Translations under genes and position numbers: made by a program | The notes under the pieces: model-generated | What the model was told of the DNA's origin: nothing | Databases searched by the model: none | Seen by the model: the letters and a program-made list of their open reading frames with translations, nothing else | Sequence record: NC_047829.1 | Strand: one strand, 5' to 3' | DNA from: Escherichia phage ST31 | Length of the DNA: 39,693 bases | In this document: in pieces, positions 19,991 to 21,353 of the stretch | Position numbering within the stretch: the first letter of the stretch is position 1 | Layout: each line of letters begins with the position of its first letter

Positions 19991-20013
19991 ACTAAACTAT
20001 CACTATAGGGAGA
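19991..20013 (+). promoter_or_regulatory. Phage RNA polymerase promoter upstream of capsid gene (phi10-like)
   Basis: AAACTATCACTATAGGGAGACC, closest to full T7 consensus; strong RBS AATAGGAGA before ATG 20116. Confidence 0.8.
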
Positions 20014-20115: not shown

Positions 20116-21159
20116 ATGGCAAACGTTCCGGGTCAGAAAATTGGTACAGACCAAGGTAAAGGCAAATCTGGTTCCGACGCTCTGGCGTTGTTCCTGAAGG
20201 TATTTGCTGGTGAAGTCCTGACCGCATTCACTCGCCGCTCTGTAACTGCTGACAAGCATATTGTCCGTACCATTCAGAACGGTAAGTCTGCTCAGTTCCC
20301 GGTCATGGGTCGCACATCTGGTGTGTATCTGGCTCCGGGTGAGCGACTGTCCGATAAGCGTAAAGGTATCAAACATACCGAGAAAGTGATTACCATTGAT
20401 GGTCTGCTGACTGCCGATGTGATGATTTTCGACATTGAAGACGCGATGAACCACTATGACGTGGCTGGCGAGTACTCCAACCAGTTGGGTGAAGCTCTGG
20501 CTATCGCTGCTGATGGCGCGGTTCTGGCTGAAATGGCTATCCTGTGTAACCTCCCAGCTGCATCCAACGAGAACATCGCTGGTCTGGGTACTGCGTCAGT
20601 ACTGGAAGTTGGTAAGAAAGCTGACCTCGACACCCCGGCTAAACTGGGCGAAGCAATCATCGGTCAACTGACCATTGCTCGTGCGAAGCTGACCTCCAAC
20701 TACGTTCCTGCTGGCGACCGTTACTTCTACACCACGCCTGACAACTACTCTGCAATCCTCGCTGCTCTGATGCCGAACGCTGCTAACTATGCTGCGCTGA
20801 TTGACCCAGAGACTGGTAACATCCGTAACGTGATGGGCTTCGTTGTTGTTGAAGTTCCGCATCTGGTACAGGGTGGTGCTGGTGAGACCCGTGGTGCTGA
20901 TGGTATCTCTATCGCTTCCGGTCAGAAACACGCATTCCCGGCAACTGCTACTGGCGACGTTAAAGTTGCTATGGATAACGTTGTGGGCCTGTTCTCTCAC
21001 CGTTCTGCTGTGGGTACTGTGAAGCTGCGTGACTTGGCGCTGGAACGTGACCGTGACGTCGATGCTCAGGGTGACCTTATTGTTGGTAAGTACGCTATGG
21101 GTCACGGTGGTCTGCGTCCTGAAGCGGCTGGCGCACTGGTTTTCAGCCCAGCGGCGTAA
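20116..21159 (+). CDS. Major capsid protein (T7 gene 10A homologue)
   Basis: 347 aa; LALFLKVF.GEVLTAF, GKSAQFPV, KHTEKVITIDGLLTADV, DIEDAMNHYDV, AILAALMPNAANYAALIDPE, HRSAVGTVKLRDLALER, KYAMGHGGLRPEAAG. Confidence 0.98.
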   Translation: MANVPGQKIGTDQGKGKSGSDALALFLKVFAGEVLTAFTRRSVTADKHIVRTIQNGKSAQFPVMGRTSGVYLAPGERLSDKRKGIKHTEKVITIDGLLTADVMIFDIEDAMNHYDVAGEYSNQLGEALAIAADGAVLAEMAILCNLPAASNENIAGLGTASVLEVGKKADLDTPAKLGEAIIGQLTIARAKLTSNYVPAGDRYFYTTPDNYSAILAALMPNAANYAALIDPETGNIRNVMGFVVVEVPHLVQGGAGETRGADGISIASGQKHAFPATATGDVKVAMDNVVGLFSHRSAVGTVKLRDLALERDRDVDAQGDLIVGKYAMGHGGLRPEAAGALVFSPAA

Positions 21160-21290
21160 GCACCTTTAGCCAACCTAACGTCGCTACAGTAGCGGCTGCA
21201 CCTGAAGAGGAGACTCTAACTCCCCAACAGAAAGCTGCGCGTACTCGTGCTGCGAACAGGGCCGCTAAACTGGCTGAGTCCAACAACTAA
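21138..21290 (+). other. Putative -1 programmed frameshift extension of capsid protein (10B-like minor capsid C-terminus)
   Basis: G-GTT-TTC at 21138-21144 near the 10A stop; the -1 frame is open for 50 codons to TAA 21288-21290, then the terminator; mirrors T7 10A/10B. Confidence 0.6.
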
Positions 21291-21294
21291 TTGA

Positions 21295-21336
21295 AACCCC
21301 TTGGGTGCCTTCGGGTGCTTGAGGGGTTTTTTGCTT
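21295..21336 (+). terminator. Late transcription terminator (T7 Tphi-like)
   Basis: AACCCCTTGGGTGCCTTCGGGTGCTTGAGGGGTTTTTTG: G-U-rich stem, TTCG loop, T6 tract; matches T7 Tphi as recalled. Confidence 0.85.
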
Positions 21337-21353
21337 AAAGTGAGAGGAGACTT

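Follow-up and report, generated by a model that had tools for sequence, protein, structure and literature searches.

The -1 programmed ribosomal frameshift of gene 10A/10B in bacteriophage T7 was reportedly described by Condron, Atkins and Gesteland in 1991. The T7 shift site is given as G_GU U_UUC, and a CCCC in the terminator, located over 200 nt to its 3' side, has a long-range effect on the shift that is still unexplained (Atkins 2016, PMC5009743). The shift takes place in about 10% of translations (Slootweg 2006, PMC1635266). A closer point of comparison is K1F, the type species of Kayfunavirus, whose gene 10 is extended by 44 triplets through a -1 frameshift in the 3' region, yielding g10b, a minor capsid protein; stable fluorescent phage were obtained only with GFP at the end of g10b (Moller-Olsen et al. 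2018, PMC6277420). GFP-EGF was later displayed likewise via g10b, and the g10b::gfp-egf phages were stable and functional (PMC10367136). Two other phages, Kvp1 and CR8, have a poly-U/Phe-codon slip at the same position: 10B of Kvp1 is made at TTTTCA with proof by mass spectrometry (PMC2579914), and 10B of CR8 is annotated at the same tttt with mass spectrometry support according to its GenBank note. T3 and phiYeO3-12 also produce a minor decorated capsid subunit, by shifting to the -1 frame where the homologous capsid gene ends. However, their slip site is C_CCA_AAG, with a Lys codon, and leads into an unrelated 86-codon Ig-like extension (Big_2 by Pfam in relatives), whereas the site in the phage analyzed here is G_GTT_TTC.

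The window analyzed in this study is the whole 39,693-nt stretch of DNA from Escherichia phage ST31 (NC_047829.1), a T7-like podophage of the genus Kayfunavirus, and all features described below lie on its + strand. Gene 10 appears in the list of open reading frames as a zero-frame CDS at 20116..21159 encoding the major capsid protein 10A (347 aa, 36.2 kDa). Its product matched the Pfam profile Gp10A-like (PF21703, E 4e-105) and, in a PDB sequence search, the T7 10A structure 2xvr (E 4e-146), and a protein collection look-up found it to be identical to YP_009790646.1 of Escherichia phage ST31. Direct reading of the DNA 5' of the gene found a promoter-like 23-mer for the phage RNA polymerase, ACTAAACTATCACTATAGGGAGA (19991..20013), which we take to resemble the T7 promoter consensus; its position matches that of phi10 in T7, making it the counterpart of that promoter.

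The 3' end of gene 10 reads CTG GTT TTC AGC CCA GCG GCG TAA, with the stop codon at 21157-21159. The first-pass annotation had placed a G-GTT-TTC run five codons before the capsid stop, and this was borne out: the proposed tandem slip site G_GTT_TTC lies at 21138..21144 (Val342-Phe343) in the X_XXY_YYZ register of the zero frame, with TTC as the fifth-last sense codon, although the heptamer matches X_XXY_YYZ only partially. Translation also agreed with the claim of 50 open codons in the -1 frame; read from 21138, that frame contains 50 sense codons (GFQPSGVSTFSQPNVATVAAAPEEETLTPQQKAARTRAANRAAKLAESNN) followed by TAA at 21288-21290. Because the nearest -1-frame stop on the 5' side is TGA at 21120-21122, any shift is confined to 21123-21156. 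No ATG, GTG or TTG occurs in the -1 ORF between that TGA and the TAA, which is the reason that had been offered for its absence from the ORF track, and no ORF in the program-made list covers the extension. After a slip the extension would comprise 48 codons (QPSGV...ESNN) and the TAA (21144..21290), so that the predicted 10B is 20116..21144 joined to 21144..21290, or 343 + 48 = 391 aa (40.8 kDa), with a tail that adds 44 residues relative to 10A. The published description of K1F (-1 shift, +44 triplets) fits this arrangement exactly. The one point in which the first-pass annotation had to be corrected is the junction, which it gave as ...GFQPSGV...; the predicted transframe junction reads ...GALVF/QPSGV... 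(junction peptide region ALVFQPSGVSTF) because the slip would come only after Val and Phe had both been read in the zero frame.

None of this is significant within the window itself. GGTTTTC is not enriched there (2 occurrences against 3.9 expected), the -1 frame is open for at least 44 codons beyond the stop in 10 of the 27 + strand ORFs of at least 100 aa, and base composition gives a P of about 0.11 for 44 open codons. On these figures the -1 frame could be an untranslated spacer before the terminator, with a heptamer that is there by coincidence. The window alone therefore leaves chance possible, and the significance of the slip site and open frame comes only through comparison with relatives.

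K1F belongs to a different species of the same genus and has the same site. It is identical to ST31 at 237 of 245 nt (97%) over 21100-21345 and at 47 of the 48 tail residues, with a single substitution of A to D, and its 10A differs at 7 of 347 residues. In T7 (NC_001604), for which a joined 10B CDS is annotated, the homologous Val-Phe pair is encoded by an identical G GTT TTC that has the same register and lies a few codons ahead of the 10A stop. The -1 tail of T7 is likewise short, lacks a start codon and terminates immediately before Tphi. The T7 tail is homologous to that of ST31 (TVAA.PEE...ETLTPxQxAARTRAANxAxK), though it adds 53 residues to 10A rather than 44, and 10A itself ends in KVE in T7 but in SPAA in ST31. 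An 18-codon core, LTPQQKAARTRAANRAAK (21216..21269, read in the -1 frame), was defined within the extension by alignment across relatives. In it, 14 of 18 residues are identical between the window and T7, and the two extensions differ by 18 synonymous codons at 57% nucleotide identity. Judged by these alignments, the likeness to the T7 10A/10B arrangement that had been proposed for this locus is one of homology and not mere similarity.

The -1 peptide of the window also aligns with the tails of Berlinvirus, Apdecimavirus, Przondovirus and an Erwinia phage, and a core of LTPxQKAARTRAANxAxK is common to at least six genera. Across 17 distinct sequences of the 18-codon core, variable sites were distributed over codon positions 1, 2 and 3 as 6, 5 and 17. 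At a nucleotide identity of 0.81, the mean pairwise amino acid identity of the core was 0.90 in the -1 frame, whereas the two remaining frames gave 0.57 and 0.59 and, in 14-15 of the 17 sequences, were interrupted by stops. The core is thus under selection at the protein level in the -1 frame. Conservation of that frame begins at the heptamer and includes the stretch that overlaps 10A; inside the genus, the tail is freely variable in its N-terminal half, while the heptamer and the 18-residue core were invariant in the near relatives examined.

A total of 84 loci related to the capsid gene (82 of them distinct) were taken from IMG/VR and GenBank. A slippery motif was counted when N_GTT_TTY or xxA_AAG occurred in the last codons of 10A, and a -1 ORF when it was at least 35 codons long. 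With a slippery motif, 49 of 52 distinct loci had such a -1 ORF stopping just before the terminator; without one, none of 30 did, and in these motif-less loci the terminator lay 3-26 nt past the 10A stop wherever the pattern scan found one nearby. The slippery heptamer was found in all 36 distinct F-type relatives that bear a -1 extension. The Val codon provided a finer test. Among relatives with Val-Phe at this position, GTT_TTY was followed by a long -1 ORF in 37 of 38, whereas of the 23 with GTC, GTA or GTG, 19 had no extension (17 of these with the terminator at most 30 nt after the 10A stop) and 4 were extended via a downstream A_AAG site. The association of the GTT codon with the extension has a Fisher P of 5e-11 when relatives are treated as independent, a value that is overstated because they are phylogenetically non-independent.

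The loci in which a motif was called without a long -1 ORF are L010, which has a 1-nt deletion, and L046, which has a truncated tail; the call in L071 is false, as the extension there lies in frame. L010 (IMGVR_UViG_2974615076_000001) is a near-identical relative in which GTAAGC at the 10A stop has become GTAGC. The stop is changed to TAG and the tail leaves the -1 frame, such that a slip would yield a tail of just 17 residues. This frame-breaking deletion means that 10B may be dispensable, making L010 a natural knockout, or that the record contains a sequencing error.

A blastn search of the phage collection with the tail DNA returned 863 records, about 174 of which hold at least 80% of the segment. 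A tblastn search of the same collection with the 50-aa tail gave no match, probably through low-complexity masking, since the same DNA gave those 863 records in blastn. Phage ZH4 is 100% identical to the window over 21100-21345, yet no record in the phage DNA collection is more than 95% identical over the first 25 kb of the window. This suggests, from sequence identity, that the 3' end of gene 10 and its terminator are exchanged mosaically among Kayfunaviruses.

These comparisons weigh against the explanation by chance raised above. Substitutions in the -1 frame follow a coding pattern, its protein sequence is conserved from Kayfunavirus to T7, Przondovirus and the Erwinia phage, relatives without slippery codons have no spacer at all, and the g10b fusions of K1F work. 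Because of this comparative evidence (the coding pattern, the co-occurrence of motif and extension, and the Val codon test), a coincidental heptamer in front of an untranslated spacer is regarded as effectively refuted, and extremely improbable despite the unremarkable figures from the window. Translation of the extension on its own, as a small gene for a peptide of about 45 aa, has an example in annotation, as Erwinia phage MT822286 lists a separate 40-aa CDS, with an ATG that overlaps the 10A stop, as a 'putative minor capsid protein'. However, the lack of any start codon in the -1 ORF of the window excludes an independent gene here, and the conservation of the frame from the heptamer on, through the part overlapping 10A, also runs against it; its probability is negligible.

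Slippage could instead be transcriptional, with the phage RNA polymerase adding one U at the T4 run. An extra U in GUUUUC would give exactly the same ...VFQPSG... protein, and because the products are identical, protein data alone cannot separate this from a ribosomal slip. However, the run is just four T long, whereas a polymerase usually requires some 7 or more identical bases to slip productively. What is conserved, moreover, is a heptamer whose codon register is fixed and which includes the third position of the Val codon, as re-pairing of tRNAs predicts, and the alternative xxA_AAG of some relatives is a classic ribosomal slip motif. The T7 site is also treated as one of ribosomal frameshifting (Atkins 2016, PMC5009743), and a transcriptional origin is considered very unlikely. 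A similarly slim prospect is that the site and ORF are a decaying relic, inherited from a T7-like ancestor, at which shifting has become so inefficient that it no longer matters. The deletion in L010, the freely variable N-terminal half of the tail and the fact that no adjacent stimulator was found in the fold of 21145-21215 (see below) would fit such decay. Against it stand the invariance of the heptamer and core in the near relatives examined, the roughly 174 phage records that hold most of the segment, and the incorporation of g10b fusions into K1F virions.

The data are best explained, with high confidence, by gene 10 of ST31 carrying the programmed -1 ribosomal frameshift of T7-like phages and making both 10A and 10B. 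The first-pass annotation had proposed such a frameshift giving a C-terminally extended minor capsid protein, and homology, the coding pattern and motif co-occurrence all support that reading. The best-supported mechanism is tandem slippage of tRNA-Val and tRNA-Phe on G_GUU_UUC. Most ribosomes would read gene 10 to the TAA at 21157-21159 and produce the 347-aa 10A, while a minority would slip back by one base with tRNA-Val and tRNA-Phe on GUU UUC. In the A site tRNA-Phe would re-pair fully on UUU, and in the P site tRNA-Val would re-pair at 2 of 3 positions on GGU. The slipped ribosomes would then read CAG CCC AGC... for 48 codons and stop at the TAA at 21288-21290, before the Tphi-like terminator, and the 391-aa 10B would be a minor variant that co-assembles into the capsid and is exposed on its surface. 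That the shift takes place in ST31 and that its product enters capsids is expected by analogy with the K1F and T7 literature.

The terminator that follows was identified by folding and a pattern scan as a Tphi-like intrinsic terminator (21293..21333) with a 17-bp hairpin at 21293-21330 (-25.2 kcal/mol), a UUCG loop and a U-run after it. It was correctly stated beforehand that the -1 frame ends at the terminator, as the TAA at 21288-21290 stops 2 nt short of the hairpin. Alignment with T7 and others shows the terminator to be conserved, and the arm AACCCCUUGGG is the same in T7 and ST31. Within the conserved arm, CCCC at 21297-21300 is the counterpart of the T7 terminator CCCC that has been implicated in frameshift stimulation; it lies 152 nt past the slip site, compared with 179 nt in T7, and in all short-tail relatives a terminator with CCCC lies 140-179 nt after the site. 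A T7-like pairing of this CCCC with a G-run was considered. However, T7 has a G-run after its site (GCUGGGGGUGG) and the window has none. Stimulation here may work without the G-run of T7; if this is true, the clade would be a useful comparison for the long-range terminator effect.

Other candidate stimulators were also sought around the site. The 71 nt after it (21145-21215) folded no better than shuffled sequences (z +0.42), giving no support for an adjacent stimulatory structure. A 208-nt fold had a z of -2.4, and on inspection its dominant stable element was the terminator hairpin. This long fold also contained an 8-bp helix (21150-21157/21178-21185) starting 6 nt past the site, which is mismatched in K1F and was not recovered by RNAalifold across genera. 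What RNAalifold did recover across genera was limited to the terminator and base pairing between the heptamer and CAGAAAGC, which lies in the conserved core. This pairing was rejected as a stimulator because a helix that spans the slip site is already unwound under the ribosome, and because the CAGAAAGC partner is constrained by coding for Q-K-A. Upstream of the site, direct reading of 21120-21137 (TGAAGCGGCTGGCGCACT) found no GGAG, GAGG or AGGA, and a Shine-Dalgarno-like stimulator is absent there.

The kind of frameshift, its family and its instance in this genus are already known, because K1F gene 10b (-1 shift, +44) and T7 10B have been published. The practical upshot for ST31 is a missing annotation, and nothing new on recoding itself. 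The RefSeq records of ST31 and K1F contain 10A only, with 10B unannotated, and an exact-sequence look-up found neither 10B sequence in a collection of 15 billion proteins. No joined 10B CDS was present in the closely related records examined, and nearly all Kayfunavirus records examined list only 10A. The label itself is misplaced in some entries: the 347-aa 10A ORF is called 'minor capsid protein (10B)' in the PRF-SP/STP-SP/CRW-SP series, in P7124 and in PDB 9vvq. Mislabelled or split records include L001 (OM867676), L002 (PQ133619) and L086 (MT822286), the last being the Erwinia phage in which the tail was made a separate CDS. A Hafnia phage paper that compares its phage with ST31 does not mention a capsid frameshift. 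Annotating 10B as a joined CDS is relevant to virion proteomics and to the engineering of phage display, the latter because the 10B C-terminus is a tolerated fusion site in K1F. The comparative set also offers clean natural controls, in which a synonymous switch of the Val codon goes with loss of the extension, and a panel of homologous sites for revisiting the distal stimulator of T7 gene 10.

The sequence behind the slip site differs among relatives. Pfam gives only Gp10A-like for ST31 10B, and Big_2 was not found in it. In many Kayfunavirus/Caroctavirus relatives (L012, L014-L024, L026-L027, L070, L074-L075 and L085, the last being CR8), a -1 module of about 85-91 aa follows the same (G/C)_GTT_TTC and replaces the short T7-type tail. 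This module (…GLTTFKALSTEG…DWSLL…RRTNSLYFKA…VRSF…) has no Pfam match, and its form in CR8, about 88 aa behind the same heptamer, is unrelated to the ST31 tail. A Big_2 domain follows the site in L028. At least three module types therefore occur among the relatives (the short T7-type tail, the uncharacterized module of about 88 aa, and Big_2), and the presence of the latter two behind the site indicates that the 10B tail has been swapped as a module within one genus. It is possible, though on balance doubtful, that the slip site serves as a fixed docking point for unrelated display modules, and likewise that the invariant Ala/Arg/Lys-rich 18-mer of the short tail, which at least six genera share, has a specific function under selection.

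A much longer extension was seen in an environmental relative, L092 (IMGVR_UViG_3300034349_000001), with which L091, L043 and L058 were grouped. Its capsid protein is 73% identical, and G_GTT_TTT is followed by a 475-codon -1 ORF (1248-2681) that stops right ahead of the terminator and gene 11. This ORF could also start independently, at a GTG (1281). The N-terminus of the extension matches Big_2 (E 5e-11), and the following residues, about 390 in number, contain GDS(L)/GxN/DxxH-like motifs that were read as a candidate SGNH-hydrolase-like region, a reading that Pfam and PDB sequence searches did not confirm. The L092 extension may represent a large capsid decoration, perhaps with enzymatic activity, that is added via frameshift. 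The more distant relatives L071-L073 (capsid 59-64% identical) have no slip site, and their zero-frame capsid ORF is 23-30 residues longer. These proteins end in basic, Ala/Arg/Lys-rich sequence (…AQAATRNKRQA, …ASTRRKAAE) resembling the 10B core, and every subunit in these phages may carry the tail in frame.
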